Part shown: positions 3,088 through 21,238 of the stretch, piece after piece | How the letters are laid out: every line of letters starts with the position of its first letter | Numbering within the stretch: position 1 is the first letter of the stretch | Source: Gaiellaceae bacterium | Lineage (GTDB): Bacteria; Actinomycetota; Thermoleophilia; Gaiellales; Gaiellaceae | Length of the DNA: 50,171 nucleotides | Assembly: GCA_035317565.1 (NCBI GenBank) | Contig: DATHGN010000086.1 | Coordinates: forward strand, 1 to 50,171 | Direction of reading: 5' to 3' | Position numbers and translations under genes: made by a program | The notes under the pieces: generated by a model | Databases searched by the model: none | Seen by the model: the letters and a program-made list of their open reading frames with translations, nothing else | What the model was told of the DNA's origin: nothing

Positions 3088-3092
3088 CGGAA

Positions 3093-3137
3093 AGCGGATG
3101 ATGGGACTCGAACCCACGACCTTCTGCATGGCAAGCA
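3093..3137 (-). repeat. distal att-like repeat: 45-nt exact copy of the tRNA-Gly(GCC) 3' half, with no 5' half
   Basis: AGCGGATGATGGGACTCGAACCCACGACCTTCTGCATGGCAAGCA is identical to 21165-21209. Sequence diverges immediately on both sides. Confidence 0.9.
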
Positions 3138-3316
3138 ACCGAGATGTTTGCCCGGCCATTCCCGTTTGGCTTAGTGAGGCGAATTCGCTTCCTGCTGTTC
3201 CCTGCCGATGCCCTGCGTTTCCACTAGTCCGCTGACCCGTTGCTGACCCGTACGCGGGGGTGCTCCGGGGTGGGGCGTCGGGGTTCGGGATCGGCGTCCG
3301 ACGACTGCCACTCGTC

Positions 3317-3754
3317 TCATTCACTCCCAACGCTTCGACTGGCAAGCATCTTCTCGACCCGGTCCAGCCGCTGATCGATGCTTAGCAGGCGGGCTTCGAT
3401 TCGCACCTCGGCGTCGTCCTCGTCCGCAGCTTGGGCACGCTCGCGTTCCTTAGATGCTCGCGCCACGAAGGTCGAGGTGATCGCGGCGGTGGTGATGGCG
3501 AGGAAAGCGATGCCCTGAAGCATCACGAGGATTGCGACGATTCTCCCGGAGGGGTTCTTCGGTGTGACGTCGCCATAGCCCACCGTCGTCACTGTCTGCA
3601 GGGCCCACCACATGCCGACCCAGACGTTCGAGTACTCGCCATGGTCGAGCAGCCGCATGAACACGCCGCCGGCGACGACCACGACGGTCGTCGCGGTGAC
3701 GATAACGCCGGCAGCGGTCCGGACGGACGGCGGTTCTCTTAGAAACCGCGTCAT
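3317..3754 (-). CDS. two-TM potassium channel (KcsA-like, ion_trans_2)
   Basis: Selectivity filter TVGYGD. Start set at MTRFLREPP (ATG 3754) because the track ORF extension to 4126 is Ser/Arg-rich junk overlapping the next gene. Confidence 0.85.
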   Translation of the reverse strand: MTRFLREPPSVRTAAGVIVTATTVVVVAGGVFMRLLDHGEYSNVWVGMWWALQTVTTVGYGDVTPKNPSGRIVAILVMLQGIAFLAITTAAITSTFVARASKERERAQAADEDDAEVRIEARLLSIDQRLDRVEKMLASRSVGSE

Positions 3755-3794
3755 GCGGCGCTCGATGACGTTCAATCGACCTGTTTGCGGCACG

Positions 3795-4697
3795 CTAGCC
3801 CTTGCGGTCGTTCTCGCCTTGCCGCCATTCGGCCCAGACTGGTCCGAAGACGGCGCAGACCATCGAGATCGTGACGGCGATGAGGATGTAGGCGACGAGC
3901 GCGATGACGACCCCGAACGCGCCGAACGCTTTTCCGTTCTGGTCCAGCGTGGGTCCGATCCAGAGCGGTGAGGTGGCGATCGTCCCGCCGAGCACGAAGG
4001 TCGCGAGGAGCGCCCCGGGTAGAAGTGAGCGAAGCGAGATCGCGCGATGGAGCAGGAAGCGCGGGGTCCAGAGCCAGAAAACCATCGAGCCGGCGATCCA
4101 GACCGGAAGCAGCGCAAGCCACCCACCCGTCCGGAGCCCCGACGCCGACACGGTCAAGAGCGCGACGACTCCGGTGAACGCGAAGAACCAGATCGTGAAC
4201 CGCACCTGGTCGGCCGCCGTGCCTACGTGGATGCGCCAGGCCCGCGCGTAGATGTCCTGGTACTGCTGTCCGATCGACAGTCCCCAGAGCAGGAACCCGA
4301 TCACGATCGTGACAGACGCTGCCACGAGATTGTTCGCAGTGGTGCCAAAGAGGTCGTGGACGAGGCTCGCGGTCGACCCGTTGAGGTTCATGTGCGAGAT
4401 CAGACGGTCCGCGAATGCGTTCTCGTCTCCTTTGGCAAGGTTGAAGATCGCGATGATGACAAGCGCTGTGGGGAACACTGACAGCGTGATGTATGTCGTT
4501 GCCGCTGAGCCTGAGTTACGGCTCGCCTCGAAGTAGCGGCGAAACCAGAGGAGCACAAGCCGGCCGAGGCTCGAATCTGTCCGCTCATGTAGCCAACCTT
4601 GCGCCGCCGCTAGGCGACTGCCGCCTGTGCCGGGAGACTCGGTCACCGGCTGCGAGTCCTGGCCCACGACGGAGGCAGGAGTTTCTGGTGTCGTCAC
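3795..4697 (-). CDS. YihY/BrkB (ribonuclease BN-like) family membrane protein
   Basis: 300 aa, about 6 TM, motif AATTYITLSVFPTALVII typical of the YihY family. Confidence 0.8.
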   Translation of the reverse strand: MTTPETPASVVGQDSQPVTESPGTGGSRLAAAQGWLHERTDSSLGRLVLLWFRRYFEASRNSGSAATTYITLSVFPTALVIIAIFNLAKGDENAFADRLISHMNLNGSTASLVHDLFGTTANNLVAASVTIVIGFLLWGLSIGQQYQDIYARAWRIHVGTAADQVRFTIWFFAFTGVVALLTVSASGLRTGGWLALLPVWIAGSMVFWLWTPRFLLHRAISLRSLLPGALLATFVLGGTIATSPLWIGPTLDQNGKAFGAFGVVIALVAYILIAVTISMVCAVFGPVWAEWRQGENDRKG

Positions 4698-5641
4698 CTA
4701 CGCTCCTTTCGGCTGAGCTGCTCCTGGTAGAGCGAGCTATTGAGTACCGGTGCGGTCACGACGAGCGTTGCGAGCAAATAGATGAAGAAGATCACCGTCG
4801 TCGTGGCGCCGAGACCGCCGTACAGCGATGTCGACTTGTCGAGCTTGGGCACCAGAAAGCTCAGGACCAGCGCGTGGAGCACCGGGATTCCAATGCCAAC
4901 GAGGAGCGCGCCGGGAAGCAGCGCCTTCCAGGGAGCATCTCTGTGCGGAAGATGAAGAGAGACCCAGAGCCACAGCGCCGTGAGCGGTCCGAACGTGAGC
5001 ACGGGAGCGAGGACGCCTGGCCAATCGCCACGGACCCACCACGTCAGCGCGACTATGGCCCAGACCGCCACCAGCACACCGGTGAAAGTCAAAGACCACT
5101 GAAGTGGCTTCGCCTTCTTGGGAGGCTCGTCCCAGACGAGCGAATGAACGAGCTGAACTGCCTTCGCGCCAGAGAATCCCGCCCAGAGGAGGAGGGGCAC
5201 GCCGACCGCGAGGAGCCACCACGAGTTGGAGTGCGCGGAACGCGAAGCGTCGCCGACCGCGTTGCTGATCGCCCCCGGAAGGCCGCCTTTCGAAACCGCT
5301 TTCTCGGTGCTGCCCGCGTTCAGGAAGCCGAGCGCACCTCCGGCGAGCAAACCGAACGGCAGCAGCCACAGGAACAGCCGGTACGCGAGGCCCCCGGCGA
5401 GAACGCTCGCCGCGACGCGCCGGTTTCGTTCCGCCGCTCGAAGGGGGACCGCGAGCGCCACGTGCTTTTCGCTCGCGCTCTTCGCACTCGCCATCGCGCC
5501 CGTGAGCTTTTCGCGCGCACGATCGGCCCGGCCGGCACCGGACGCCTGGTCAGAACCCCCAGCTGCCTCGGCTCGTCGATCCCGGGCGTCGTCGGCGGCC
5601 GCCACATCTGTCTCCGGTTTCCTCATGCCCGCGGCAGGCAT
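4694..5641 (-). CDS. YihY/BrkB family membrane protein (tandem paralog)
   Basis: 315 aa with GGLAYRLFLWLLPFGLL and C-terminal TM bundle ...LYGGLGATTTVIFFIYL. Its 3' end overlaps the downstream paralog's start by 4 nt. Confidence 0.75.
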   Translation of the reverse strand: MPAAGMRKPETDVAAADDARDRRAEAAGGSDQASGAGRADRAREKLTGAMASAKSASEKHVALAVPLRAAERNRRVAASVLAGGLAYRLFLWLLPFGLLAGGALGFLNAGSTEKAVSKGGLPGAISNAVGDASRSAHSNSWWLLAVGVPLLLWAGFSGAKAVQLVHSLVWDEPPKKAKPLQWSLTFTGVLVAVWAIVALTWWVRGDWPGVLAPVLTFGPLTALWLWVSLHLPHRDAPWKALLPGALLVGIGIPVLHALVLSFLVPKLDKSTSLYGGLGATTTVIFFIYLLATLVVTAPVLNSSLYQEQLSRKERR

Positions 5642-5647
5642 TCGCAG

Positions 5648-6379
5648 CTAATCGAGGGTGTGGATCGTGAAGGCGACCGCGAACCCGAGCGTCGTCACGA
5701 CTCCGACGAACTTGCCTCCGTGCTCGTAGGCCTCGGGCATCATCGTCTCCGCGAGCATGGTGAGGATCGCACCACCTGCAAAGGCGAGAACGAAGGCGGT
5801 GGTGCCGGGTGAGGAATCTTGGAAAAGCCCGTAGCCCGCCAGCGAGGCGAGCCCGGAGATGAGTGCGATCGCGGTCCACATCCACAGGATTCGTGACTTC
5901 TTCCATCCGCTTGTGGCGAGGCCGGCGGTCGAGGAGATCGACTCCGGCAGGTTCGAGATGAAGACCGCAGCCAGGTAGGCGGCGCCCACCGCTCCGCCTT
6001 CGAAGATCGTCAGGCCGATCACCATCGACTCTGGGATCCCGTCGAGCACGCTTCCGAGGACGATCGAGAGCGACGAGCCGCCCTCCTGGTTGCCGCTTGG
6101 GTCCTTACGTTGACTGCCCCCGAGGCGGTCGATCAGCCGGTCGCCGCCGAAGAAGACCAGACAGCCGGCGAAGAAACCCCCGACGACCCAGCCGTGACCG
6201 GATGACTTGTCGACCGCCTCCTGGACGAGATCGAACGAGATCGCGCTGATCAGCACGCCCGAGCCGAAGGCCATGATCAGCCCGATCGTGCGCAGGCCGA
6301 TGCTGAAGATCAGCGCAACAATCGCGCCGATCACGAGCGACGAAGCAGCCAGGGTCCCCCAACCGAAGGCGGCACCCAT
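5648..6379 (-). CDS. ZIP family metal transporter (ZupT-like)
   Basis: 243 aa, about 8 TM, motifs DGIPESMVIGL and ISNLPESISS. Confidence 0.85.
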   Translation of the reverse strand: MGAAFGWGTLAASSLVIGAIVALIFSIGLRTIGLIMAFGSGVLISAISFDLVQEAVDKSSGHGWVVGGFFAGCLVFFGGDRLIDRLGGSQRKDPSGNQEGGSSLSIVLGSVLDGIPESMVIGLTIFEGGAVGAAYLAAVFISNLPESISSTAGLATSGWKKSRILWMWTAIALISGLASLAGYGLFQDSSPGTTAFVLAFAGGAILTMLAETMMPEAYEHGGKFVGVVTTLGFAVAFTIHTLD

Positions 6380-6554
6380 CTAGTGCTGCTCTCTGCTCGC
6401 TACGGCAACCGGTGTGGATGCTGCACCGACCGCGGCACCGGCGGGTGTGCTACACGGGCCGAGAAGAAGCTCAGCCTCCTTGCCGTGCGCAGCTACCTCC
6501 ACGGTTGCCCTGTCCGTTTCTGACCCGCCTCGGCGCCACTTCGGCTTGAGACCA

Positions 6555-8153
6555 CTAGTCCAGGGCTTCGATCTCGCTCGGCCGCCACGTCTTGTCGAAG
6601 AACGGCTGCAGCGGATTGTAGAGCCGGAGGATCGGGAACCAGCCCTTGTCGGGGTTGGTTTGCAGCCAGTTCGATTCTTTGCCCTCGGGTGCGGTGGGAC
6701 CGAAGTAGATGTCGGTCGAGCCGTCGGTATTGGTTTCGACCGTACCCGACTGACTGCCGAGGTCCGGCATCCCTTGGTCGGTCTGGAGCATGGAGCGCGT
6801 CTGACGGTCATAGGCCATCACCGACCAGAACCGGCTCTCGGGGATGTCGGGAGGCAACGTGATCCGGTAGGAGCGCGCACCGTCGAGGTAGTCGCCATTG
6901 GAGTCGCGTGTGGCGAAGATGTATTGCGAGCCGATCCCGGTGAGTCGCATACACATCGCCGGAGTGACGCCGGTGTATGCGTAGAAGAACGCGATGCGGG
7001 CGTTGTGCTTGCGGGCGCCGTCGCTCGGGGACTGCTCGACCCCCTTCGGAGTGATCAGCGGCGGGGGTGTGAGGAACTCATAGCCCTCCCACATCATGGT
7101 GAACCACGCCGAGCCCGGGTAGAACGCCCAGCCTTCTTGTTCGCGCGGGTCGAGAGCCAGCGTGCGGGCGGTCGCGTTGCCCACTTTGACCGCGTCGCTG
7201 AGGATCTTGCGCATCCGCGCGTCAGGTGCAAACGGTTGCCCCTTGACGATCCCGACCGAAGCGAGCAGGCCGAGGATCTCGGGGTTTCCCGCCTCCACCG
7301 GCTCCGTTTGTACAACTTCGTTGATGAGGTCCCAGTACGAGTCATCGACCGGCGGCACCGTGTTGAACGACTTGTGGACCGCGTCGACGAAGCGGGTCGG
7401 CGCCGGTTCGGTCGCAGGTGCGAACGGGCCCGCACCGAAGAGGTACGTCGAGACCGGCGACCCCACCCCGCCAGGCTGGTACGGATAGATCTTCAACCCG
7501 TTGCGGATGACTTCGTCAGCCGGTGCGGGGTCGTTGTCAACCTTGAACGCTCGAGCGAACCACCACGCCCGCGTCGTGCGGCAATGCGACACGAAGTACC
7601 CATCGTCCGGTAGCGGACCGTCATAACCCGGTCCGACGATGAGGTAACGCCCGCCGGTACCTCGGTCCCGCCCCGGGAGCCCCATGTCAGTCACCCAGTT
7701 GAACCACATGTCGTCGACCCCACCCAGGATCCCAGTCGGCGGACCCAACGCCGGCAGTTCGACGACCATCGGGCCGTTCGTCAGGTCCAGGAACGAGATG
7801 TAGTAGAGCGTGTCGCAGTTCGCGGTCAGGAACAGCGACTGCGAGTCCATCAACTCGGGGAACGCCAGTACGTCGTTGTCCTCGACGCCGATGCTCAAGA
7901 ATCCTTGGCGCATCGCCGCCAGCGACGCTCCGGGGAAGCTGTTGATGAACGCCTCGACGCCGTGCATGAGGTCGAGGTTGTCGTAAAGCAGCGCAGCCGT
8001 CTCCTCAGACGGTGCGCCGTCGTCGAACTTCAACGTCCCGAGGCTTGTCTCGACCCGATCGGGGGTCGAAATCGACTTCAGCGTCTCGGCCGAAACGCCC
8101 TGCTTCACGGCAACGCCCATCACGCCCTCCTCACTCAGACAATCGAGGCTCAA
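6555..8153 (-). CDS. DUF1254/DUF1214 domain protein
   Basis: 532 aa. C-terminus WFPILRLYNPLQPFFDKTWRPSEIE is typical of DUF1214. Paralog of 8685..10256. The start may be the internal MGVAVKQ (8120). Confidence 0.8.
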   Translation of the reverse strand: MSLDCLSEEGVMGVAVKQGVSAETLKSISTPDRVETSLGTLKFDDGAPSEETAALLYDNLDLMHGVEAFINSFPGASLAAMRQGFLSIGVEDNDVLAFPELMDSQSLFLTANCDTLYYISFLDLTNGPMVVELPALGPPTGILGGVDDMWFNWVTDMGLPGRDRGTGGRYLIVGPGYDGPLPDDGYFVSHCRTTRAWWFARAFKVDNDPAPADEVIRNGLKIYPYQPGGVGSPVSTYLFGAGPFAPATEPAPTRFVDAVHKSFNTVPPVDDSYWDLINEVVQTEPVEAGNPEILGLLASVGIVKGQPFAPDARMRKILSDAVKVGNATARTLALDPREQEGWAFYPGSAWFTMMWEGYEFLTPPPLITPKGVEQSPSDGARKHNARIAFFYAYTGVTPAMCMRLTGIGSQYIFATRDSNGDYLDGARSYRITLPPDIPESRFWSVMAYDRQTRSMLQTDQGMPDLGSQSGTVETNTDGSTDIYFGPTAPEGKESNWLQTNPDKGWFPILRLYNPLQPFFDKTWRPSEIEALD

Positions 8154-8628
8154 GAAGTACCAAGGAACTACTCAGACCTAGTCCGAGCACCGTAGGCGTT
8201 CACGCCGCAACGCAACATCATCCAAACTGTATGAAGCGACTCGTCAGTCTTCTGATTGCGACGGGTGGCCGAAATCCGCTACTGCCTGTTCGCTTCAGCG
8301 GAGCTCGATAACTGTGTCTCCACAGTCGAAGTTCAGGCAAAGGATCCGAAGCCACCAGAGTGTTCAAATGCTGACGCGAATGGTCTCTCGCGGGTGTGTA
8401 AGCAGCCCCGCTTTCGTTGGGTTCTCCTCAGCAGCTCCGGCATGCGTTCACGAATCGATCCCCGCGCTGAGTGGCAAGTGCCTCGCACGACATGCACAAC
8501 AGGTCTGGAAACTGTCGAGTCGCGGCGGCGGGAATCGAGTCCTGCAAGGTTTCAAACGGCTTGGACAGTAGTAAGCGGGACGGAGGTTCATACGATCAGG
8601 ATGAGGAAGCGGGGTTAGGTCCTCTTTA

Positions 8629-8662
8629 CGTTCTCGGCTAAGAGCCGTTCTCGGCTACGAGC
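8629..8662 (+). promoter_or_regulatory. tandem 17-nt direct repeat (2 units) upstream of 8685 CDS
   Basis: CGTTCTCGGCTAAGAGC / CGTTCTCGGCTACGAGC, 16/17 identical, ending 22 nt before the ATG and just upstream of the AGGAGG RBS. Confidence 0.45.
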
Positions 8663-8684
8663 CGGAGTAGGAGGAGGGACCGCA

Positions 8685-10256
8685 ATGCACGCCACTGTTG
8701 CAACCAAGACATCTGTGCCCGAAGCGATCACTACCCCGTCGAGCGTGAAGGCCGGGATCGGGAAGCTGGAGTTCACCGACGGCTACCCGAACGGTAAGAC
8801 CGCGGAGAAGCTGCGTGACCACCTGGACTACCTGCACGGCGTCGAGACGTTCATGAACACCATCCAGGGGGTGTCCGTGTTCGCCATCCGGAAGGGGTTC
8901 CAGGACGCCGGCGTCGCGGATGGTGACGTGCTGATCTTCTCCGAGCTGATGGATTCCCGGTCGCTGTTCTTGACCGCGAACGCCGACACGGTCTACTTCT
9001 GGTCCTTTCACGACCTGTCGCAGGGACCACTGGTGTTCGAGACACCGTCCGAAACGCTGGGCCTCTTCAACGACATCTGGTTCCGCTGGATCAGCGACTT
9101 CGGCCTGCCCGGTGCGGACCGCGGCCAGGGCGGGACATACCTGCTGGTCGGCCCCGAGTACGACGGCCCGCTGCCCGAAGGTGACTACTACGTGCGGCAC
9201 TCGCGCGCCAACCACGTGACCTTGATCGGCCGGGCGTTCATCAACGAGAATCCTGGCGCTGACCCCGCCCCCACCGTCGCCCGGATCAAGGAGCAGCTGA
9301 AGATCTATCCCTACGCCGCCGGGGGCGTCGGCAGCAGTATCGGCTCCTACCTGACGGGCAAGGGCCCGCTCGGCCAGGCAGCCAGTCCGCAGAGCCCCCG
9401 GTTCGTGGAGGGGAGCGGTCTGGCGATGAACACCGTCCCGCCCAACGACTTCGGCCACTACGAGATGCTCGACGCCTTGGTGCAGCTTGAGCCGGCCGAG
9501 GCGCTCGACACCGAACTGGCCGGGCAGTTCGCCGCGATCGGCATCGTCAAAAACGAGAAGTTCGCGCCCGACGCTCGGCTGCGCGGGATCCTCGACGATG
9601 CCGTGGCTGTCGGCAACGCCGCGTCCCGGATGCACGGGATGGGTGCGTCCCCGACCGAGGGCTTCCGCTACTACGACGGCGACTCCGCCTGGTGGAACAT
9701 GCTGTTCGTCGGCGGGTTCGAGTTCACCAACCCGCCGCCCGAGATCACTCCGGAAGGCGTCAAGCCCTACCCGAACCAGGGCGCCCGCCGGTTGCACTCA
9801 CGCACCTCGATGTTCTACACCGCCACCGCCATCACCCCCGCCATGTGCATGCGGCTGACCGGCGTCGGGTCGCAGTACTTGATCGCCAACGTGGACGAGA
9901 ACGGCATACCGTTCGACGGCGCGGAGACCTACCGGGTAAGGCTGCCCAAGGACATCCCGGCGGCCCGGTTTTGGTCTCTCAACGTGTACGACAGCCAAAC
10001 CCGCTCCCTGCTGCAGACCGAGCAGCTCTACCCCCGGGCCGGCAGCCAGGAATACCCCTCACCCGCCGCGGCGGCCGAAGACGACGGCTCCACCGTCATC
10101 TACTGCTCGCCCGCCCGGCCCGACGACGTCGCCCCGGGCAACTGGATCCAGACCGATCCCGAGAAGGGCTGGTTCGTCATTCTGCGCTGCTACAGCCCGC
10201 TGCAGCCCTTCTTCGACAAGACCTGGAGGCCGGGCGAGTTCGAGCTGGTGAGCTAA
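8685..10256 (+). CDS. DUF1254/DUF1214 domain protein (divergent paralog)
   Basis: 523 aa. C-terminus WFVILRCYSPLQPFFDKTWRPGEFE. RBS AGGAGG upstream. Confidence 0.85.
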   Translation: MHATVATKTSVPEAITTPSSVKAGIGKLEFTDGYPNGKTAEKLRDHLDYLHGVETFMNTIQGVSVFAIRKGFQDAGVADGDVLIFSELMDSRSLFLTANADTVYFWSFHDLSQGPLVFETPSETLGLFNDIWFRWISDFGLPGADRGQGGTYLLVGPEYDGPLPEGDYYVRHSRANHVTLIGRAFINENPGADPAPTVARIKEQLKIYPYAAGGVGSSIGSYLTGKGPLGQAASPQSPRFVEGSGLAMNTVPPNDFGHYEMLDALVQLEPAEALDTELAGQFAAIGIVKNEKFAPDARLRGILDDAVAVGNAASRMHGMGASPTEGFRYYDGDSAWWNMLFVGGFEFTNPPPEITPEGVKPYPNQGARRLHSRTSMFYTATAITPAMCMRLTGVGSQYLIANVDENGIPFDGAETYRVRLPKDIPAARFWSLNVYDSQTRSLLQTEQLYPRAGSQEYPSPAAAAEDDGSTVIYCSPARPDDVAPGNWIQTDPEKGWFVILRCYSPLQPFFDKTWRPGEFELVS

Positions 10257-10328
10257 CCGCCGGCGCTGAGCCCGAAGAGAAGCCGAGCGCCTGCGCTCGC
10301 TCCGCTCCTCAGGAACCTAGCAAGGTGA

Positions 10329-10550
10329 TCACGCCACGCCTTCCGGGCTGACGCACGCCGCCACGGCCGCTCGAATCGTCGGGTGGAAGTGGCTCCTGCC
10401 GATCGCCTCGGTCACTCCAGCATCTGCGAACTGTTCCTCCATGCGTGTTCGCAGCCGGGCGACGACCAGCGTGATCTCGTCGCGCCGCAGATGCTTCGCC
10501 AGCTGGTCGAGCGCGTCGAGCCCGGTCGAGTCGACGTTTGTGTCGCGTCG
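10329..10550 (-). pseudogene. remnant of a SulP-type STAS domain C-terminus (no start, no transporter body)
   Basis: Minus-strand frame reads ...VDSTGLDALDQLAKHLRRDEITLVVARLRTRMEEQFADAGVTEAIGRSHFHPTIRAAVAACV-stop. An in-frame stop lies at 10593-10595 and there is no start codon. Confidence 0.5.
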
Positions 10551-10551
10551 C

Positions 10552-10728
10552 TCAGGCCAGGACTGTTCTGTCCGAGACCATGTATGCCGCGATCAAGGCC
10601 AGCGGGAAGAAGAGCAGGCTGAGGACGAAAAAGCCGAAGAAGCTGTGTCCCTTACGCGCGGCGACCCGCGCGGGCCAGAAGGCGATCGCAACCCACACGA
10701 TGATGAAGAGAATCGACCACAACCACAT
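10552..10728 (-). CDS. small two-TM membrane protein (58 aa, below track cutoff)
   Basis: MWLWSILFIIVWVAIAFWPARVAARKGHSFFGFFVLSLLFFPLALIAAYMVSDRTVLA. GGAGG lies 9 nt upstream of the ATG. Preceded by box a and a GATAGT hexamer. Confidence 0.55.
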   Translation of the reverse strand: MWLWSILFIIVWVAIAFWPARVAARKGHSFFGFFVLSLLFFPLALIAAYMVSDRTVLA

Positions 10729-10793
10729 TTTGGACCTCCGTCTCGAGGGGCACGCCGTGTCGTTCCAGCCACTATCCCCTTGAGAACGCGCGA

Positions 10794-10817
10794 CTTCGTC
10801 ATACAGATCGCACGATT
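10794..10817 (-). promoter_or_regulatory. dyad box a (read in gene direction: AATCGTGCGATCTGTATGACGAAG), with GATAGT hexamer at 10771-10776
   Basis: One of five related boxes. There are 21 nt between ATGAC and the hexamer. An extra ATGACGAAG half-site lies at 10821-10829. Confidence 0.6.
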
Positions 10818-10869
10818 CTCTTCGTCATGCTGGTGAGACGAGGTCACCAGTGAACGCACGCCGCGTACG

Positions 10870-11205: not shown

Positions 11206-11329
11206 GGCGACCGCGGTGCGTCGTTCCGCTCGGACGCGTCGCTCATGATGCCTCCCTTTGTGGGCATGACGGACTAAGTCCCTGCCGATCCGTCTCCTTG
11301 TCCAGGACTATCGGCGCGGAGGCGCCGCT

Positions 11330-13655: not shown

Positions 13656-13684
13656 TGGATGCTACGACGGTCCCGGAGGGCTTT

Positions 13685-13708
13685 ATTTCATGCGATCGGC
13701 ATGACCAG
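13685..13708. promoter_or_regulatory. dyad box e (ATTTCATGCGATCGGCATGACCAG), 30 nt upstream of the LAL start codon
   Basis: Best dyad of the five (TCATGC-N5-GCATGA). No ATAGT hexamer at the conserved spacing. Lies between the divergent LAL and DedA genes. Confidence 0.5.
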
Positions 13709-14091
13709 AGCGAATTTGCGGACGGCAGACACCGTGAGCGTCCGACGGCGGCGAGGGACGTGGGACAGCCCGGGAAGCCCCAAACGGGGGTCGACGGTTC
13801 GAGTCCGTACGGAGGGGCTTCCTATTTCTTCCTGCCTAACGGCGGGCTTTTGCTTCGGCCATCGAGGATGGTCCCGGACGGGATCGTCATCGGCCAAGCG
13901 GCGATCTCGCGAACGAAGCTCGCTCCCAGAACCGTCTGCGGCAACGCCACCTTGACCATGCTGCCCGAGGGATGCATCGGAACGGACCGCCTACGACGGC
14001 CGGCAGCGGGGCGCAAATCTCATCCAGAGAGTATGAGGTGCGAGCAACCCTCAAAGTGTTCGATGGACGCCGCGATGGACGAAGGCCGGCA

Positions 14092-14856
14092 ATGAACGAC
14101 GAGGTCCATACATCCGAGAGTCGGCATCACCTGCCGAGCCTACGCAAGCTCATCTACATCGCCCTTGGCGCGCTCGCTCTTCTGTGGGTCGTGCCGGATA
14201 TCGTCGCGGCGCTCGGCTCGATCGACATCCAAGGCGTCGAGCGCCCTTACCTCCTCACATTCCTGTTTGTCTGGTGGGACGCCGTCGTTCCCGTCTTCCC
14301 GAGCGAGTCGCTGCTGAACACGGGTGCGACGCTGATCGCGTCCGGAGACCTGGATCTCAAGCTCTGGCTGCTGATCCTCGTGGGCGCATCCGGCGCGATC
14401 ATCGGCGACAGCACCCTCTACTGGCTCGCGAGGACGGTTGGTCGCAAGCACCTGGCGGCCAAGCTGGAGAAAGCAAAGGAAAACCCCAAGGTCAGCACCG
14501 CGTTCAAGGTGCTCGGCACAAGCGCCCCCCTGGTGATAGTCGCCGGCCGGTTCGTGCCCGGGATGCGGTTCGTGATCGGGGTGACGATGGGCCTGGAACG
14601 CTATCCGTACGCCCGATTTCTCTCGTTCTCGATGCTCGGCGGCTTCCTCTGGGCGGCCTTCAACTGCGGGTTCTCCTACCTCATTGGCTCGACCAGGCTC
14701 GGCGAGTACTCAGTGCTCTCGCTTCTCACATCAGCGGCAGTCACCGGGGGCATTCTCGCCGTCCTCTACAAATCCCTGAAGCGCAGCTATGAGGAGCAGA
14801 ATCAGACAGCAAGCTCCCAGCCGAAGTCCGTCGGGCTGGCCGATCACCCTGCTTGA
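14092..14856 (+). CDS. DedA/VTT family membrane protein
   Basis: Start trimmed to MNDEVHTSE. DedA-like motifs: PVFPSESLL, GDSTLYWLAR, GRFVPGMR. Confidence 0.85.
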   Translation: MNDEVHTSESRHHLPSLRKLIYIALGALALLWVVPDIVAALGSIDIQGVERPYLLTFLFVWWDAVVPVFPSESLLNTGATLIASGDLDLKLWLLILVGASGAIIGDSTLYWLARTVGRKHLAAKLEKAKENPKVSTAFKVLGTSAPLVIVAGRFVPGMRFVIGVTMGLERYPYARFLSFSMLGGFLWAAFNCGFSYLIGSTRLGEYSVLSLLTSAAVTGGILAVLYKSLKRSYEEQNQTASSQPKSVGLADHPA

Positions 14857-14897
14857 GCAACCCGGTGCTCGCAAGGTAACTGGGTTAGCGCGACAAG

Positions 14898-14990
14898 GTG
14901 ACACCGATGATCGGCGCAGCGCGTACCGTCGTTAGCGCACCGAAGCTCGCGCCGGCGCTCGGCTACGACGTCGAGCAAGCCCTCGAGTAG
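14898..14990 (+). pseudogene. fragment of a CMD-family gene (last 30 codons plus stop only)
   Basis: VTPMIGAARTVVSAPKLAPALGYDVEQALE-stop. 88/93 nt identical to the reverse complement of 10870-10962. An in-frame stop lies at 14886-14888. Confidence 0.75.
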
Positions 14991-15031
14991 CTCAGACTGC
15001 ACGCGTTCACCGGTGACCTCGTCTCACCGGC

Positions 15032-15075
15032 TTGACGAATAGTCGCGGCCCGATTTATCACCCGAATCGGGTGAT
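15032..15075 (+). promoter_or_regulatory. candidate promoter (TTGACG-N17-TTATCA) overlapped by a 19-bp perfect palindrome ATCACCCGAATCGGGTGAT (15057-15075)
   Basis: Read directly from the sequence, 64 nt upstream of ATG 15139. Confidence 0.5.
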
Positions 15076-15138
15076 GTTCCATTGCGTCCGACACGCCACT
15101 GTCACGAGCGATCGGTCTTCGGAAAAGGAGCAACTTCG

Positions 15139-15579
15139 ATGGCATCACCAGCGATAACAGAAGACAGGGCAGTCGCATCGTCAGACTCGTGGACCGGGTG
15201 GATCGTCTTCGCCGGGTTCGTGCTGATCATCGTCGGCGCCATCGACGCGCTGCAGGGTCTCGTCGCGATCGTCAAGGACGACTACGTTGTGGCAACGCCG
15301 AAGGGCGTCGCGATCGTCGATGTGACTGCATGGGGTTGGGCGACGCTGATCTGGGGCGTGGTGCTCGTCCTCGCCGGCCTAGGATTGCTCGGCGGGGCCG
15401 GCTGGGCGCGCTGGCTCGCCATCATCGGCGTGGCCGTCAATGCGATCGGACAGATGGCATTCATGGCGAACTACCCGCAGGCGTATCCGCTCTGGAACAT
15501 CCTGATCGTCGCTCTCAACATCGTCGTGCTGTACGCGTTGACCGCGCACTGGCGTGGCTTCAAGAACTCTCTCGCCTGA
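15139..15579 (+). CDS. four-TM membrane protein of unknown function (146 aa)
   Basis: RBS AAGGAG lies 8 nt upstream of ATG 15139. Sequence: SWTGWIVFAGFVLIIVGAIDALQG...WARWLAIIGVAVNAIGQMAFM. Confidence 0.7.
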   Translation: MASPAITEDRAVASSDSWTGWIVFAGFVLIIVGAIDALQGLVAIVKDDYVVATPKGVAIVDVTAWGWATLIWGVVLVLAGLGLLGGAGWARWLAIIGVAVNAIGQMAFMANYPQAYPLWNILIVALNIVVLYALTAHWRGFKNSLA

Positions 15580-15643
15580 TTCAGGACTCCGACGCCGATC
15601 GAGGGACGCGGCTCGTCCGTGTCCCTCGATCCGCGGCTCCGAA

Positions 15644-15667
15644 ATTCGTGCGATCCATATGACGAAG
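15644..15667 (+). promoter_or_regulatory. dyad box c (ATTCGTGCGATCCATATGACGAAG), with GATAGT hexamer at 15686-15691; orphan copy
   Basis: Box, hexamer and ~35 nt of leader are homologous to the box a module, but no ORF follows. Points into the 3' end of the convergent GFA gene. Confidence 0.55.
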
Positions 15668-15752
15668 TCGGGCCGTTCTCGGACCGATAGTCGCTCGAAC
15701 GACACCGCGTACACCTCGAAGCACCTCGAGGCGCTCGCGCGTCATTCGTTGG

Positions 15753-16220
15753 TCACGCTCGTGTCCCGCCTTGTGATGTTCCATCGTGGTCATGATGCCC
15801 CCCCGGCATCGGAAGATCCGAGGGGTTCATCGACCACGGATGCCCGTAGGCTTCGAAGCCGGAAATCATTGGCGGCGGAAACGTCGGGTCGGTGAAGGCG
15901 CCCACCGCGACCCCTACGATGTCCGAAGCGTTGGAGATCTCCCAGTACACGGTCGAACCGCACTCAGGGCAGAAGTGATACGTGCCCCCCATGCTGTCGC
16001 ATCGACTGGCCGGCTTCCCGCTGTCGCTCGGAACCGTCCACGTCGTCGATTGGCCTTCTATCGTCAGGTGCTCGATCGGAAGTCGCGCTTGTACGCTAAG
16101 CACGCTGCCCGTCCGCCTCTGGCAGTCGTAGCACTGGCACAGGGATATGCGCTCTGGGTCGGGCCCTTCGTAGGTAACGGTGAGCTTTCCGCAATTGCAC
16201 GAAGCCTTACGGGTGGCCAT
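15753..16220 (-). CDS. GFA (glutathione-dependent formaldehyde-activating enzyme) family Cys-rich zinc protein
   Basis: SCNCGKLTV...LCQCYDCQRRTGS...FCPECGSTVYW. RBS AGGAGGAG upstream. Confidence 0.85.
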   Translation of the reverse strand: MATRKASCNCGKLTVTYEGPDPERISLCQCYDCQRRTGSVLSVQARLPIEHLTIEGQSTTWTVPSDSGKPASRCDSMGGTYHFCPECGSTVYWEISNASDIVGVAVGAFTDPTFPPPMISGFEAYGHPWSMNPSDLPMPGGHHDHDGTSQGGTRA

Positions 16221-16401
16221 TTCTCCTCCTGTTCGTTGCGACCACGATCATGGCGTTGTCCTCACGGCTTCGATCTCGTTCGGAGTTCGAACGAATCTCC
16301 CTAGAAACGGACACTGGATCAGGTCTCCGTACGCTCTACTTCGCCGCGCACGAATCGCTTTGTTGAGATCTGCACTGACTATGGCCGGAGGTGCGCCTGC
16401 C

Positions 16402-16424
16402 CGCGTCATACGGATGGCATGAAT
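16402..16424 (-). promoter_or_regulatory. dyad box d (ATTCATGCCATCCGTATGACGCG), with CATAGT hexamer at 16378-16383
   Basis: Same 21-nt ATGAC-to-hexamer spacing. About 150-nt leader to the GFA start. Confidence 0.5.
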
Positions 16425-17176
16425 CAGGCATCCACTACGAGGGGACGTCTTCCAAAGCACCCGGCTGGGTGCTCTCTCACACCAGCAAGTCTCCCGACGA
16501 GACGGCGGCGCAATCCCGGCCCGGAGTGCATGCCAGGTGTTTACGCATCTCTCAGGGCCAGACTCTCGTCGGATTTGGGGCCCCAGGGAAGGAGTCCCAC
16601 TTGCTCGGCGTCCCGCGGGGGTGCCCGGGGGATGGCTCCTCGGACCCAAGGATGGGACCCCGAACGCCCGAGGCCTTGCGCGGGGGATGCCCCCCGTCTG
16701 GGACTCCGGCGCGCTCGAGTCCACGCTAGGCGGAAGCGTGCAAGTCGGGTGGCGCCGGAGTGACGGTCAGCAAGCGGATCGACCCGAAAACGCTGACCCT
16801 TTGATGACCCGCGCTCCGTAAACGCTCAAGCCGAGTGCGTTTGAGGAACAACCCTTTGCACGCTGAGTAGAAGACACGTAGGTGCCCCGCTAGGCACCGC
16901 TTCGTCAGGGTCAACAGGACGCTAAGGGGCCGCGTCACTCTGCTGACATGTCCCGCTCAAAGGCCGCCCTCTTCGCCGCTTTACACGGGATCGGGCAAGG
17001 CTCTCGTTCACCGGGCGGCCATCGATAGCTACCGATGGCACTACAAGCAACTACTTAAGCCGAGCCGGCACTTCCGCAAGCCGATCTCCAAGATCTCAAC
17101 CAACGACGTCGCGGCCTTCATCCTCGACCTCAAGAAGTACCGCAAGGCTAACGGCGAGCCGCTGAAGGGGTGGACA

Positions 17177-17995
17177 ATGCGAGGAGCAGTGAGCGTGCTT
17201 TCCGGGATCCTCACGGAGGCGGTCGAGCAAGGCGTCCTTGCTTCGAACCCAGTGCAGAAGGTCTCAAAGAAGAAACGTGAAAGACTCGGCGACGAATCGC
17301 CGAAGCGGGTCTTGACTGCGGATGAAATCGAGCAGCTCGTCGGCGCCGCTGAGCAACGCGGCATCCGTTGGGCAGTGCTCGTCGCGCTCGGCGTGTACGC
17401 AGGCCTTCGGCTCGGCGAAGCCCTCGGCGTTCGGTGGCAAGACATCGATCTCGATACGGGAATGATCCACGTTCGCAGGCAACGCGACTCAAAGACTGGC
17501 GCCTCCCGCGACCTGAAGACCAATGCTGCCAAGCGCGAAATCCCTATCGCCTCCCCACTCCGCCGCCGCCTGGTCGAGTGGAAGCTGCAGAGCAATCATG
17601 CGAAAGAGCACGATACGGTCGTCTCCACTGTCACGGGCCTATCGATCTCACAACGCAACGGCCTCCGCGCGCTCTGTGCGATCGCCGAGTCATGCGCGAT
17701 AAATGTTCCGCGCAACAAGGAAACGGCGGAGCGACCCAATCTTGACTTCCATTCCCTGAGGCACACCTTCGCCTCAGCGATGATCAAGGCCACAAAGGGA
17801 GACGCCGAAAAGGTGCGACGTTGGATGGGACACGCCGACACCAAGGTGCTGCTCGAGCGCTACTCACATGAATTTGAGTCCGTGCGTGGAGGCCGAAGAA
17901 TCGAGGCCGACATTGCCGAAATGGACGCTGCTTACGGTGGCTCTCCCACTCTACGGCCGGTCGCAGCTTCCGCACCACGGCCGGCGCCCGGTTAG
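17177..17995 (+). CDS. tyrosine recombinase/integrase, apparently 5'-truncated
   Basis: Catalytic region AGLRLGEALGVRW...HSLRHTFAS...GHADTKVLLERYSH. Core-binding-domain-like sequence (SYRWHYKQLLKPSRHFRKPISKISTNDVAAFILDL) continues in frame upstream to about 16982, with no ATG/GTG/TTG before 17177. Confidence 0.85.
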   Translation: MRGAVSVLSGILTEAVEQGVLASNPVQKVSKKKRERLGDESPKRVLTADEIEQLVGAAEQRGIRWAVLVALGVYAGLRLGEALGVRWQDIDLDTGMIHVRRQRDSKTGASRDLKTNAAKREIPIASPLRRRLVEWKLQSNHAKEHDTVVSTVTGLSISQRNGLRALCAIAESCAINVPRNKETAERPNLDFHSLRHTFASAMIKATKGDAEKVRRWMGHADTKVLLERYSHEFESVRGGRRIEADIAEMDAAYGGSPTLRPVAASAPRPAPG

Positions 17996-18010
17996 CGAGC
18001 AGACTCTGTC

Positions 18011-18031
18011 GCGGGAGTAATCGAACCCGCG
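18011..18031 (-). repeat. tRNA T-arm-like fragment (degenerate copy of 19012-19037)
   Basis: GCGGGAGTAATCGAACCCGCG against GCGGGAATCGAACCCGCG at 19 kb, 16 nt after the integrase stop. Confidence 0.4.
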
Positions 18032-18179
18032 CAACGTTTCCCTCGTGCCTATGCGCCTGAAACGCGAACGTGCGATGGCCAGCGCGTGCTAAGCGCGCAC
18101 GCCGCAATGAGCCGCGTAGAAAGGCCTAGCTAACTTCCGACTGCGGCACCCGGCATGCCAGAGGCGAGGGCGAGATCGG

Positions 18180-18974
18180 TCACCGCTCTGCAAGGTATGC
18201 GTATCGCGACAGGCGTCGCTCGTGTGCGAGAAGGTGACAAACTGCTAGGAAGCGCTGAACGCCTTCGAACGTCGACTCCCCCTCATCGGCCACCAGTTCA
18301 TCGTGGGATTGCGCGCGGGCAGTGTGCCAGCGACCGGCCATCGAGGCCATATTCTCGGTCAGGTCTTCGCGGCGGATGACTTCGAATCCAGCGCTGGAGA
18401 GCAGCTCCTCGTTTACCGACTGGGCCGAGAAGACGTAGATTCCCACGGCGCTTCGGGTTGCAATCTCGGCGTCGGTGACGAGACCTGTAACGATCGTCGG
18501 GTCGGTGAAGAGAACCCGCGCGCCGGGTGCGGTGACGCGGCGCCACTCGCGGAGGATGTCGGCGCGGTTGGGGAGGTGACACATCACATCAATCGAGATG
18601 ACGGCGTCAAAGCTCTGATCGTCGAACGGCAGGCGAGCTCCGGCATCGACGCGGACAAAACGGGCACGATCGCCGAGCCCGCGCTCCTCGGCGAGTCGAG
18701 TCGCTGTGACGATGCCCTCCTCGAGGAGGTCGATCCCGACGACGCTCGCCCCCTTGGTCTTCGCAAGGTGGAGAGCGGGGCCGCCCGACCCGCAGCCCAC
18801 GTCGAGCAGGCGTGATCCGTCACCGAGAGCGAGCCACTGCGCAAAACACTCGAGCTCGTCGGACGTAACCCAACCGGATTGCCCGAGGTCGTCGCCATAT
18901 GTCGCGCGACGGACCTGGTCGCGAGCGGTGAAACCCGCGTATGCGGACGCATACAGAGGGACATGCTCACCCAC
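18180..18974 (-). CDS. class I SAM-dependent methyltransferase (small-molecule type)
   Basis: Motif I LDVGCGSGGPALHL. Downstream motifs DAVISIDVMCHL and GARVLFTDP. Confidence 0.85.
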   Translation of the reverse strand: MGEHVPLYASAYAGFTARDQVRRATYGDDLGQSGWVTSDELECFAQWLALGDGSRLLDVGCGSGGPALHLAKTKGASVVGIDLLEEGIVTATRLAEERGLGDRARFVRVDAGARLPFDDQSFDAVISIDVMCHLPNRADILREWRRVTAPGARVLFTDPTIVTGLVTDAEIATRSAVGIYVFSAQSVNEELLSSAGFEVIRREDLTENMASMAGRWHTARAQSHDELVADEGESTFEGVQRFLAVCHLLAHERRLSRYAYLAER

Positions 18975-19011
18975 GCGTTTACCTTAGTACTTCCCTTGCA
19001 AGCGCCCTCGA

Positions 19012-19037
19012 AGCGATGGAATGGAGGCGGCGGGAAT
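19012..19037 (-). other. orphan tmRNA/tRNA-Ala-like 3' end (T-arm plus acceptor strand only)
   Basis: Minus strand reads ACGCGGGTTCGATTCCCGCCGCCTCCA: T-stem GCGGG/CCCGC, loop TTCGATT, acceptor strand CGCCTCC (U70-compatible), discriminator A. No matching 5' acceptor strand or anticodon arm upstream. Confidence 0.45.
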
Positions 19038-19074
19038 CGAACCCGCGTAAGATTTCAATCGGGAGAGCGTCCCT

Positions 19075-20940
19075 CTATCCAGCCAGAGTATCGCGCGTGA
19101 CTTGCTGGATTTGGACGCCCATCCGTGCTGCCGGGATCGCGATTACATCCGCAACGCCCCCCGTCGCGGCATCGATCTTGTGCGCAAGTGACGAGGTGCG
19201 AAGATTCAGCGGCGCGGAGACGAGAAGGTGATCTCGGGCTCGTGTCACGCCGACGTAGGCACGACGGATGCCATCTGCGACGTCGCCGCCAGCAGTGAAG
19301 CTAGCTGTCAAGGCGGTTGCTAAGAACACGACCGGAGCTTGGAGGCCTTTCGCGCCAAAGATGGTCATGACTGGCACGGAGCCGGGCATCTCAGCAGGAT
19401 CCGTCTGACTGTCCTCCGAGCGGTCAACGATCCGCTGGAACAATTGAGATGCTGAGCCAGCGTCGGCTCCTGCTGCGAATTCGGTGACGACCGAGAGGTC
19501 AAGGTCGGTTAGCACTAGTTCTCCCGCGAGAAGCTCGACAACATCGACCGCCCCAATCTCTTGCTCCCCACCAAACTGGGCTAACAGAGCGTCTCCCGCG
19601 GCAAGCGGTCGCGCACAAACATCATCCGACTCAGCTACGGAGCGAAGGCAGCGGAGGTAAGTGGCCTCTCCGGCTCCGAGAATCCGCTTGAGGCGGGTAG
19701 GCCCAAGCCCAGGGGTTTCGGCCACGAGCCTTCTCCATGCCATCTGATCCTCAGCACTTATCAGCAGGCGAACACCGGCGCTCAGTAGACGTACGCCGGT
19801 GTCGCCTCCAAGAGGGTTGCGGCGTCTTGGATCGTAAAACGCGAAACCGAGGTTGTCGACTTGCTCAATCGCTTCGTTGAGTGCGCGCAAAAGGTCATCA
19901 ACGAAGCCGGCTGCCACGATGAGAATCTCGTTCGGGCTAATTCCTTCTGCGATGAACTCGCCACAGCGCTGGACGATCCAGCGCGCTTCGATTGCAGGGG
20001 TAGACGCGCCAATTAACTCGACTGTTCCTTCGTCTTCACGGCCTTCCCACGGCTCCAAGGCGGGCCGGTCGAGCCCCTCTAGGGCGGGCAGCGCCTCTGC
20101 CATTCGATTGGCGAGATCACACACGGCCTGCGGACAGCGCGAGGAGCGCCACAGGTAGTCCGGCGCCTCTAATCCGTAGACCTCCGGGAAGCGGTGGAGT
20201 GCAAGCGGATCCGCGGCGCGAAAGCGGTAGATGGACTGGCGGTCGTCACCGCACGCCTCCACGACGGTGTTGAACTGCTCCTTGAACAGCTGCAAAAGAC
20301 GAAGCTCGCCGGGTGTGAAGTCCTGGTACTCGTCGCAGAGGATGTGAGTAGGCGGATCCGCGAGATCGGCACCCTGGTCGATTAGCCGAATCAGGTCGAA
20401 GGCCAGCTCGTCCATCAGCCTGTATCGAAAGAGTTCGCGTTGATGTTGGAAGACCTGAAAGAGCCTCTGCTCCTCGGGTGACATTTCCGCTGGCTCGGCT
20501 TGTTCAGCCCGGAAAGCCGCACCAAGGCGCTGGATGAAATCCCCTATTCGGTCGCGGCGAATCGTGGCGCCGAATGCGAGTTGAGCACCCTGCTGCAAGT
20601 CGAGTCGAACGAGATCGTCCACATCATCTGGTGCAACCACCCGCCGATCCCAAGCCTCGCCCAGTCGGTTTAGCCAAGTTAACGCGAACGAGTGGAACGT
20701 CTGTGCTCGCCCGTACGGCACACGTTCTGCCAAGCTCTCGACAAGCGACCGCGTTAGCGTCAGCAGCGCGATCCCATCTGGATCGACGCCGCATTGTTCG
20801 ACGAGGAACCGAGCGCGGCACTCAATAGTGAAGGTCTTCCCCGTCCCCGGCCCGGCGACAAGAAGCGCATGCTCGGTGGCGTCGCGCTCGATGAAGCGAC
20901 GCTGCTCAGGGAGGGGTTCGGGAACACCCACGGGCGGCAC
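19075..20940 (-). CDS. UvrD/Rep/PcrA-like superfamily 1 helicase
   Basis: 621 aa. Walker A AGPGTGKT, DEYQD, late motif YVGVTRAR. No recognisable nuclease extension at either end. Confidence 0.85.
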   Translation of the reverse strand: MPPVGVPEPLPEQRRFIERDATEHALLVAGPGTGKTFTIECRARFLVEQCGVDPDGIALLTLTRSLVESLAERVPYGRAQTFHSFALTWLNRLGEAWDRRVVAPDDVDDLVRLDLQQGAQLAFGATIRRDRIGDFIQRLGAAFRAEQAEPAEMSPEEQRLFQVFQHQRELFRYRLMDELAFDLIRLIDQGADLADPPTHILCDEYQDFTPGELRLLQLFKEQFNTVVEACGDDRQSIYRFRAADPLALHRFPEVYGLEAPDYLWRSSRCPQAVCDLANRMAEALPALEGLDRPALEPWEGREDEGTVELIGASTPAIEARWIVQRCGEFIAEGISPNEILIVAAGFVDDLLRALNEAIEQVDNLGFAFYDPRRRNPLGGDTGVRLLSAGVRLLISAEDQMAWRRLVAETPGLGPTRLKRILGAGEATYLRCLRSVAESDDVCARPLAAGDALLAQFGGEQEIGAVDVVELLAGELVLTDLDLSVVTEFAAGADAGSASQLFQRIVDRSEDSQTDPAEMPGSVPVMTIFGAKGLQAPVVFLATALTASFTAGGDVADGIRRAYVGVTRARDHLLVSAPLNLRTSSLAHKIDAATGGVADVIAIPAARMGVQIQQVTRDTLAG

Positions 20941-21131
20941 GGTACGGCCGGAGCATTACCGGAGTCAACGCCGGGAGGGTTCTTTCTTACGCGAGCATGA
21001 CTCCCCGACACCCGCCGATCGGGGGTCACGCGCAGCGCCGACTAGGGGCCTGGAGCACACGCGGAGGCTTTTGCTGACCCACGCGCTGACCCAAGCGCCG
21101 AATCTGCCTCTCCCGCCGTCAGTCGCGGCAA

Positions 21132-21157
21132 CAAAAAAGGCCCCATTCCGGGGCCTT
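21132..21157 (-). terminator. intrinsic terminator 3' of tRNA-Gly
   Basis: Stem AAGGCCCC/GGGGCCTT, loop ATTCC, then TTTTTT on the minus strand, 7 nt after the tRNA 3' end. Confidence 0.7.
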
Positions 21158-21164
21158 CACGAAG

Positions 21165-21238
21165 AGCGGATGATGGGACTCGAACCCACGACCTTCTGCA
21201 TGGCAAGCAGACGCTCTAGCCAACTGAGCTACATCCGC
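21165..21238 (-). tRNA. tRNA-Gly (anticodon GCC)
   Basis: Manual cloverleaf: GCGGATG TA GCTC AGTTGGCTA GAGC G TCTGC TTGCCAT GCAGA AGGTC GTGGG TTCGAGT CCCAT CATCCGC T. CCA is not encoded. Confidence 0.93.

Follow-up and report, generated by a model that had tools for sequence, protein, structure and literature searches.

A mosaic genomic island, probably inserted by a tyrosine integrase into tRNA-Gly(GCC), in an uncultured Gaiellaceae soil actinobacterium

Introduction

Mobile elements of the pSAM2 type, the actinomycete integrative and conjugative elements (AICEs), reside in high-G+C actinobacteria. They encode a tyrosine integrase within a xis-int module, and their attP overlaps a tRNA gene at its 3' end. 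When a genomic island occupies a tRNA or tmRNA gene, the target gene is regenerated and a displaced fragment of it marks the far end of the island (Islander, PMC4383910). Here we analyze a stretch of 50,171 nt, referred to throughout as the window, from an uncultured soil actinobacterium of the Gaiellaceae (Thermoleophilia; Gaiellaceae bacterium, assembly GCA_035317565.1, contig DATHGN010000086.1, forward strand). With a probability of about 0.88, positions 3093-21209 of the window are a genomic island put into the 3' half of tRNA-Gly(GCC) by a tyrosine integrase. The island is a mosaic, in which a conserved cargo module (A2, ~13 kb, 3138-16456, from a K+ channel gene to a GFA-family gene) is joined to a variable module beside attL (A1, ~4.5 kb, 16457-20984, with an integrase pseudogene, a methyltransferase gene, and a helicase gene).

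The island shares with those described in Islander (PMC4383910) a tyrosine integrase, a regenerated tRNA 3' target, a displaced 3' fragment in direct orientation, cargo unrelated to phage or conjugation functions, and the formation of tandem arrays at one tDNA. It departs from them in its uncultured Gaiellaceae host, in an integrase pseudogene that lies 3.2 kb from the tRNA, and in an internal module that varies. As in a lambda-type attP, short direct repeats (pairs of GCTGACCC) lie 70-95 nt from the core on both sides, and the homologs of the integrase family have an N-terminal domain of ~60 aa and an HTH_17 excisionase-like gene before the integrase gene. Unlike in a lambda-type attP, one pair is recognized per arm and a third pair stands upstream of the integrase gene, all of them candidate sites. 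The likeness to pSAM2 and the AICEs lies in the tyrosine integrase with its xis-int module, the attP overlapping a tRNA 3' end, and the high-G+C actinobacterial host. In contrast to these elements, the Pfam hits of the window include no replication or FtsK-like transfer genes, and a related element, that of locus L114, has only a NikA-like gene.

Results

The presumed target of integration is an intact tRNA-Gly(GCC) on the reverse strand at 21164-21238, called by ARAGORN and scoring 72.4 bits with the Rfam tRNA model against a gathering score of 29; depending on the caller (ARAGORN, Rfam), it starts at 21164 or 21165. The 45-mer AGCGGATGATGGGACTCGAACCCACGACCTTCTGCATGGCAAGCA, which spans the gene from the last 3 nt of the anticodon-stem 5' strand to the discriminator base, has exactly two copies in the window, 45/45 identical and both on the + strand. 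The attL copy (21165-21209) is the 3' 45 nt of the functional tRNA-Gly, while the attR copy (3093-3137) is a displaced tRNA-Gly 3' fragment at the far end of the island. The window has no third copy at ≤3 mismatches, the expected number being 0 (100 shuffles), and no additional att copy appears in the ≤1 kb that population contigs (see below) add past its left end. Scans with 20-mers of the whole tRNA gave no tRNA 5' half beside 3137. The original prediction had described a perfect, same-orientation 45-bp repeat of the tRNA-Gly 3' half, with no 5' half at 3093-3137, and both parts of that description were confirmed, the first by exact search and the second by the 20-mer scans.

Two sets of sequences were compared with the window, and L numbers denote metagenome contigs and metagenome-assembled genomes (MAGs) throughout. 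The population set was obtained by exact-protein look-ups with the RNase H, GT87, GFA, and ZIP proteins, which gave 40 soil-metagenome contigs. These are 99.3-99.97% identical to the window over the aligning stretches, in all cases except part of L102 (contig Ga0307316_10000130). Samples with this population belong to ENA assemblies ERZ272572xx and ERZ272679xx-ERZ272680xx and to JGI 3300028710-3300028884. The relatives set came from an RNase H scan of species-representative genomes and comprises 80 loci, nearly all from Gaiellaceae, Gaiellales, or Thermoleophilia MAGs. Some 75 of these 80 keep the gene order EF-G-like, PadR, aldehyde dehydrogenase, RNase H, tRNA-Gly, and the genes beyond tRNA-Gly vary from genome to genome. 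In the window, the right flank begins with the RNase H gene (21259-21660, -), followed by the aldehyde dehydrogenase gene, and the left flank carries a GT87 glycosyltransferase gene (1154-2479, +).

Across the 80 related loci, the 45-mer is confined to tRNA-Gly or to a displaced fragment downstream of tRNA-Gly, so that the dispersed repeat named earlier as a possible refutation is ruled out. The same data bear on the idea that the 45-mer is a chance or dispersed repeat, or what a local duplication of the tRNA gene left behind, with no mobile element involved. Apart from the bare fact that tRNA genes can duplicate, nothing speaks for it, and we regard it as already refuted and its probability as practically nil: zero copies are expected by chance, the 80 loci show the sequence only in tRNA-Gly or in a downstream 3' fragment, and the integrase, the matched repeat pairs, the empty site, and the deviant composition all speak against it.

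To look for an unoccupied site, JGI metagenome contigs were searched exactly for an empty-junction pattern, made of the sequence left of 3093, the 45-mer, and the tRNA 5' half. One contig matched, L101, from a relative with ~78% DNA identity across RNase H, aldehyde dehydrogenase, and EF-G. Here an intact tRNA-Gly is followed directly by a homolog of window positions 2999-3092, which hold the outer terminator and a CTGACTA pair. An empty site had been expected to show tRNA-Gly joined to the terminator left of 3093, and in L101 it is joined directly to that terminator and to the repeat pair.

Read in the direction of the tRNA, each copy of the 45-mer is followed by its own unrelated hairpin and T-run, as had been noted earlier. 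The outer terminator (3056-3091, -), with a stem at 3068-3080 within a larger hairpin at 3061-3087, lies outside the island; the inner one, a hairpin plus T-run at 21136-21158 (-), now ends the tRNA-Gly transcript. Directly after tRNA-Gly, the outer terminator is found in L101 and in L026, a closer relative in which 34 of 36 nt match, and hairpins like it follow tRNA-Gly in L021, L023, L024, L027, and L068. Among the 80 relatives, this 36-nt terminator of L026 was the only left-flank DNA matched downstream of tRNA-Gly. The order at the inner terminator (tRNA, hairpin, repeat pair) is shared by L102, L112, L114, and L039. Because the outer terminator adjoins tRNA-Gly in L101 and L026, as similar hairpins do elsewhere, it appears to be the older of the two, and the inner one to have come with the island. 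This supports the earlier proposal that one terminator was brought in by the element, the inner terminator being island DNA.

Inside both att copies lie pairs of a short direct repeat, in the same orientation at the two ends: GCTGACCC-N4-GCTGACCC at 21073-21092 (+), 73 nt inside attL, and GCTGACCC-N3-GCTGACCC at 3231-3249 (+), 94 nt inside attR. A third pair, GCTGACCC-N3-GATGACCC at 16792-16810 (+), stands ~140 nt upstream of the integrase start codon. The number of GCTGACCC pairs expected by chance in the window is 0-0.06, and the N3-spaced pattern matches the window twice, against 0 expected. A GCTGACCC pair also lies 61-73 nt from the end of tRNA-Gly in L039, L058, L102, L112, and L114-L116, with a degenerate copy in L053. 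As their position, pairing, and co-occurrence with this integrase family fit such a role, the pairs are probably arm-type integrase-binding sites. The matching pairs at both ends argue that 3093-21209 entered as one unit.

A repeat of another type, the CTGACTA-N4-CTGACTA pair at 3004-3021, lies outside attR. It follows tRNA-Gly in L101, L080, and L085, and variants of it occur in L024, L041, and L068; it is probably an arm remnant of an older element. In various genomes, tRNA-Gly is followed by a terminator and then by a pair of some other 7- to 9-mer (TAGTCAG, GAGTCCCAG, TGGCAAC, and others), which we read as putative arms left by other integrase subfamilies. A second tRNA-Gly fragment, starting at tRNA positions 31-35, is present 0.8-6.4 kb downstream of the gene in seven loci (L026, L043, L057, L061, L063, L090, and L094), and shorter fragments occur in L047 and L076. 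From these sequences, the tRNA-Gly locus appears to be a tandem-insertion hotspot in Gaiellaceae. The left flank of the window itself probably holds a remnant of an older element.

The island stands beside differing flanks. In three contigs from three samples (L121, L122, and L125), the cargo is 99.3-99.8% identical to that of the window up to and through the attR copy, and identity stops at 3061, inside the terminator, with a flank beyond that is unrelated to the window's. In this flank, a variant terminator and a TAGTCAG pair are accompanied by a gene for a cNMP-binding protein, small open reading frames (ORFs), and an integrase fragment of 182 aa. At 4.07 kb beyond attR comes a third att copy, which has two mismatches and is followed by other genes. 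In L121 and L125, a CTGACTA-type pair starts a 4-kb element that ends in the integrase fragment and the third att copy.

At the other end, L102 has a right flank 94.5% identical to the window (92-98% per 200 nt). The first 180 nt inside its attL are ~79% identical, with the repeat pair kept; 330 unrelated bp then take the place of 16457-20984, and from 16456 to 9754 the identity is 99.93%, with five evenly spread differences. Different flanks are thus found on the left in L121, L122, and L125, and L102 supports the same on the right in part only. Since the same island lies beside differing flanks, the repeat-bounded unit occurs in more than one chromosomal background.

These comparisons also separate the two modules. 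A1 is replaced in L102 and differs in L109, which departs from the window right of 16997, and two contigs, each from a different sample, stop at 16316. A2 keeps 99.3-99.9% identity in all population contigs, those with other flanks included. The near-identity of the 13-kb cargo across lineages points to recent exchange. A distant relative, L053 (contig CAWFIP010000003.1), with flank proteins 73-80% identical, carries related genes in another order at 3.5-10 kb downstream of tRNA-Gly, namely DUF1254/DUF1214 genes (one at 89% DNA identity) and genes of the ZIP, CMD-like, and LAL types.

The integrase gene of the window is a pseudogene (16948-17995, +), with a frameshift and a 171-bp deletion relative to the allele of L005, a 405-aa ORF. 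The frameshift is due to one extra A in the run at 16959-16961, and the deletion lies at 17018/17019. The surviving ORF (17177-17995) is the catalytic domain, matching PF00589 at 7e-23. Full-length homologs recovered by protein search are ~404 aa long and 54-87% identical; they carry an extra N-terminal domain of ~60 aa, and the catalytic residues R211, H325, R328, H352, and Y362 (L005 numbering) are invariant in their alignment. In the L005 integrase itself, the conserved N-terminal domain is 16 residues short. An excisionase-like HTH_17 gene of 64-68 aa stands before the integrase gene of intact homologs; a tblastn search with two such proteins, those of L112 and L114, gave no remnant in the window. 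As the N-terminal part of the integrase is lost and no excisionase gene is left, the window copy should be unable to excise itself.

Relatives of this integrase lie at tRNA-Gly in several genomes. L039 has a remnant 59% identical to the integrase C terminus ~50 nt from its tRNA-Gly(GCC). In L112, a 70% identical integrase gene is convergent with tRNA-Gly, from which it is separated by 2 kb and one cargo gene. The 56% identical integrase of L114 belongs to a 9-kb element that has an exact 43-nt repeat from the 3' part of tRNA-Gly(CCC) at each end. More distant integrases are encoded directly after tRNA-Gly in L040 and L077. No tRNA-Gly was found near P0009, a 60% identical integrase in L113.

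Some other features of these loci were noted. Four tandem 85-bp units (L112, 11297-11641) lie just downstream of the integrase gene and before a gene with an SLFN/AlbA_2 domain, and L027 encodes another distant integrase homolog at 520-1242. In L040, a distant integrase homolog (2952-3581) is convergent with the conserved tRNA-Trp(CCA) gene (3804-3876), ~220 nt away. tRNA-Trp(CCA) is the second of the two tRNA genes in the window (28616-28689), and it may be a second integration hotspot in Gaiellaceae. In L065, a long CT-rich microsatellite (~10503-10560) directly follows tRNA-Gly.

The state of the integrase is relevant to a rather unlikely history, in which the island is old and vertically inherited, and in which near-identity and flank differences arose by homologous recombination and flank rearrangement and not by recent integration. 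The integrase is dead in every allele seen, even that of L005 with its 16 missing N-terminal-domain residues, single-nucleotide polymorphism (SNP) patterns within the island are mosaic among contigs, and L015 combines the variant terminator with the GT87 flank. Likewise, the attL-proximal 180 nt of L102, at 79%, are more diverged than the flank, which fits recombination inside the island. Such a history explains the spread of the island but not its origin, as the att structure, the empty site of L101, and the integrase relatives call for an integration event; moreover, the left-hand limit of identity falls immediately outside the att copy, where a site-specific insertion would place it. Homologous recombination may nonetheless explain part of the population pattern.

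The composition of the island was compared with that of the flanks. In tetranucleotide usage, A1 lies at a distance of 0.282 from the right flank, A2 at 0.199, and the left flank at 0.256; the maxima for flank chunks of matching size are 0.166, 0.138, and 0.205, respectively. The G+C content at third codon positions (GC3) of A1 is 0.66-0.73, against 0.84 ± 0.03 in 23 flank genes. In this comparison, which had been proposed at the outset, the island deviates from its flank in tetranucleotide distance as a whole and in GC3 for A1.

A1 has a GC3 much below that of the cargo, and L102 and L109 keep the cargo with A1 replaced or absent, so that A1 might have arrived separately. Two tandem integrations would then have taken place, first of an older cargo island (3138 to ~16450) and later of an integrase element (~16450-21164), with the middle att lost and the repeat at 3093 belonging to the older element only. 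The third GCTGACCC pair, at 16792, lies about where the inner arm of such an arrangement is expected, a weak att-like stretch (16651-16686) is at the predicted distance from that pair, and tandem arrays do exist at the locus (L125). Yet a middle att copy could not be substantiated: when the tRNA was aligned to 16200-16900, the best local score was 33, within the range of shuffles (mean, 24.7; standard deviation, 3.4; maximum, 36), and 16651-16686 scored lower, so this candidate was rejected. Being younger, a middle att would be expected to be at least as well preserved as the perfect outer copy. L102, which keeps both the attL-proximal 180 nt and the cargo, looks like an internal module replacement, and the repeat pairs at both present ends match each other. 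We therefore consider two integrations unlikely and prefer a single island with a replaceable internal module.

Genes were assigned by Pfam. From attR inward, A2 encodes a K+ channel (3317-3757, -), two BrkB/YihY proteins (3795-4697 and 4694-5641, both -) with a mutual identity of only 24%, a ZIP transporter (5648-6379, -), two divergent, 52% identical DUF1254/DUF1214 proteins (6555-8153, -, and 8685-10256, +), a CMD-like ORF with a weak match (10870-11205, -), a LAL/LuxR regulator (11382-13655, -), a VTT/DedA protein (13972-14856, +), a DUF7144 protein (15082-15579, +), and a GFA-family protein (15753-16220, -). In A1, the Phage_integrase-domain ORF (17177-17995, +) is followed by genes for a SAM-dependent methyltransferase (18180-18974, -), which lies between two t(m)RNA-like fragments, and for a UvrD-like SF1 helicase (19075-20940, -) that resembles GajB models. 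Helicase calls of 469 aa versus 621 aa in other contigs reflect differing start choices on identical DNA. The genes named in the original prediction (K+ channel, two YihY proteins, ZIP, two DUF1254/DUF1214 proteins, LAL, methyltransferase, helicase, and integrase) are all recovered by Pfam, which adds to them the VTT/DedA, DUF7144, and GFA-family proteins and the weak CMD-like ORF.

Among the likely-gene ORFs of 3138-21164, small ORFs being unscanned, Pfam gave no conjugation genes (relaxase, type IV secretion system, or FtsK-like Tra with Rep), and the Pfam hits of the likely-gene ORFs include no phage capsid, portal, terminase, or tail genes. This agrees with the earlier view of the element as no recognizable phage or integrative and conjugative element (ICE). 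The helicase matches GajB models at 2e-24, and no GajA-like gene stands beside it, its neighbor being the methyltransferase, which has a generic hit only. A reading of helicase and methyltransferase as Gabija or another defense system was rejected, as PADLOC returned generic hits only and no partner genes. The element thus qualifies neither as a prophage, nor as an ICE or AICE, nor as Gabija; it has the att pair, the integrase, the empty site, and the several contexts of a tRNA island.

Several further repeats lie within the island. A 145-nt inverted repeat (10818-10962 and 14898-15042, 89% complementary) brackets the LAL regulator and VTT genes. Because one arm coincides with the 3' end of the CMD-like gene, the other is a partial inverted duplicate of that gene end, and the bracketed segment may be invertible or may be the product of a rearrangement. 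The intergenic 20-nt motif TCGTCATACAGATCGCAYGA occurs at 10796-10815, 11332-11351, and 15646-15665 (-), three matches at ≤3 mismatches versus 0 expected, with weaker copies near 13665-13705 and 16401-16422. The copies surround the genes for the LAL regulator and the CMD-like, DUF7144, and GFA proteins, and the motif may be an operator for the island's LuxR-type regulator, a candidate suggested by its distribution.

At 8505-8560, 18000-18050, and 19007-19062 lie t(m)RNA-like fragments, all in the same orientation, that have ~40 nt in common, a part that resembles a T-arm and 3' acceptor strand (GCGGGTTCGATTCCCGCCGCCTCCA). One adjoins the integrase stop codon, and two flank the methyltransferase gene. 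Their best Rfam match is to tmRNA (19019-19161, -) at 38.6 bits, under the gathering score of 47. A tmRNA gene at this position was rejected, given the subthreshold score and a fold no stabler than that of shuffles (z = -1.55), and the sequence was taken as a t(m)RNA 3' fragment. A second type of att site may have left these fragments behind.

The left flank was also inspected. Upstream of the GT87 gene it contains a 71-nt direct repeat (370-440 and 805-875) with 93% identity and 435-nt spacing. Between the GT87 gene and the outer terminator, ~500 nt (2480-3000) are without any ORF of host-like codon bias, a stretch in which an older element may have decayed. In tetranucleotide composition, the left flank is atypical as a whole (1-3092).

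Discussion

We read 3093-21209 as a tyrosine-integrase island because of the 45-nt repeat, the empty site of L101, the differing flanks, the hotspot, and the integrase relatives found at tRNA-Gly. The same interpretation had been put forward in the original prediction, and the GCTGACCC pairs and the composition lend it further support. The integrase pseudogene, the replaceable 4.5-kb module, and the tandem-insertion hotspot had not been foreseen.

A circular element would have carried the last 45 nt of tRNA-Gly as its attP core, flanked on either side by GCTGACCC pairs, and a terminator of its own. The pairs are probably bound by the N-terminal domain of the integrase, a role suggested by their arrangement. 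Recombination with the chromosomal tRNA-Gly would have rebuilt an intact tRNA at attL and left the 45-nt fragment at attR, and through this integration the old terminator would now lie 18 kb away. We infer that integration was of a single 18-kb unit. In the strain studied here, with a broken integrase and no excisionase, the element would no longer be self-mobile. In other strains, the A1 module is swapped or missing, and the membrane, ion-transport, and regulator cargo is kept.

Several observations weigh against this interpretation. The contig of L101 stops 90 nt beyond the shared flank, before any GT87 gene could show, and no relative has a GT87 gene within 10 kb of tRNA-Gly, so that the left flank itself appears variable. 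The empty site is seen between species only: all of the 40 near-identical contigs that are long enough carry the island, and no same-species empty site or circle junction was seen in a metagenome scan that was aimed at the empty-site pattern only. Metagenome contigs can be chimeric, and L102, a single contig, could be one such; the left-flank junction of L121, L122, and L125, in contrast, was seen in three samples. The integrase gene lies 3.2 kb from tRNA-Gly, unlike in L039, where the two are adjacent. The GC3 of the A2 cargo, 0.74-0.90, is close to that of the host, which fits exchange among Gaiellaceae of similar composition. Finally, the t(m)RNA-like fragments at the 3' end of the integrase gene and around the methyltransferase gene hint at a more complex history.

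A bolder proposal builds on these fragments. The island could be a platform that takes up cassettes at secondary sites, with the three t(m)RNA-like fragments serving as internal att sites for methyltransferase and helicase modules; after the death of the integrase, the cargo would then spread among ~94% identical Gaiellaceae by recombination through the conserved att and arm ends. We hold this to be doubtful, somewhat more so than two tandem integrations.

The island is real but ordinary, of the textbook integrase type. It leaves the understanding of tRNA-integrated islands unchanged, and it is of interest mostly for its host group and for the detail available at population level. The family it represents is well delimited, with tRNA-Gly as its target, a xis-int module, and pairs of GGGTCAGC as its candidate arm-site motif, and it extends the record of a soil actinobacterial group that is abundant but poorly studied. 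Elements are seen to accrete in tandem and modules to be swapped, and lineages with chromosomes that are ~5% different share nearly the same cargo. This is of use in the annotation of Gaiellaceae MAGs and in work on gene flow within soil populations.

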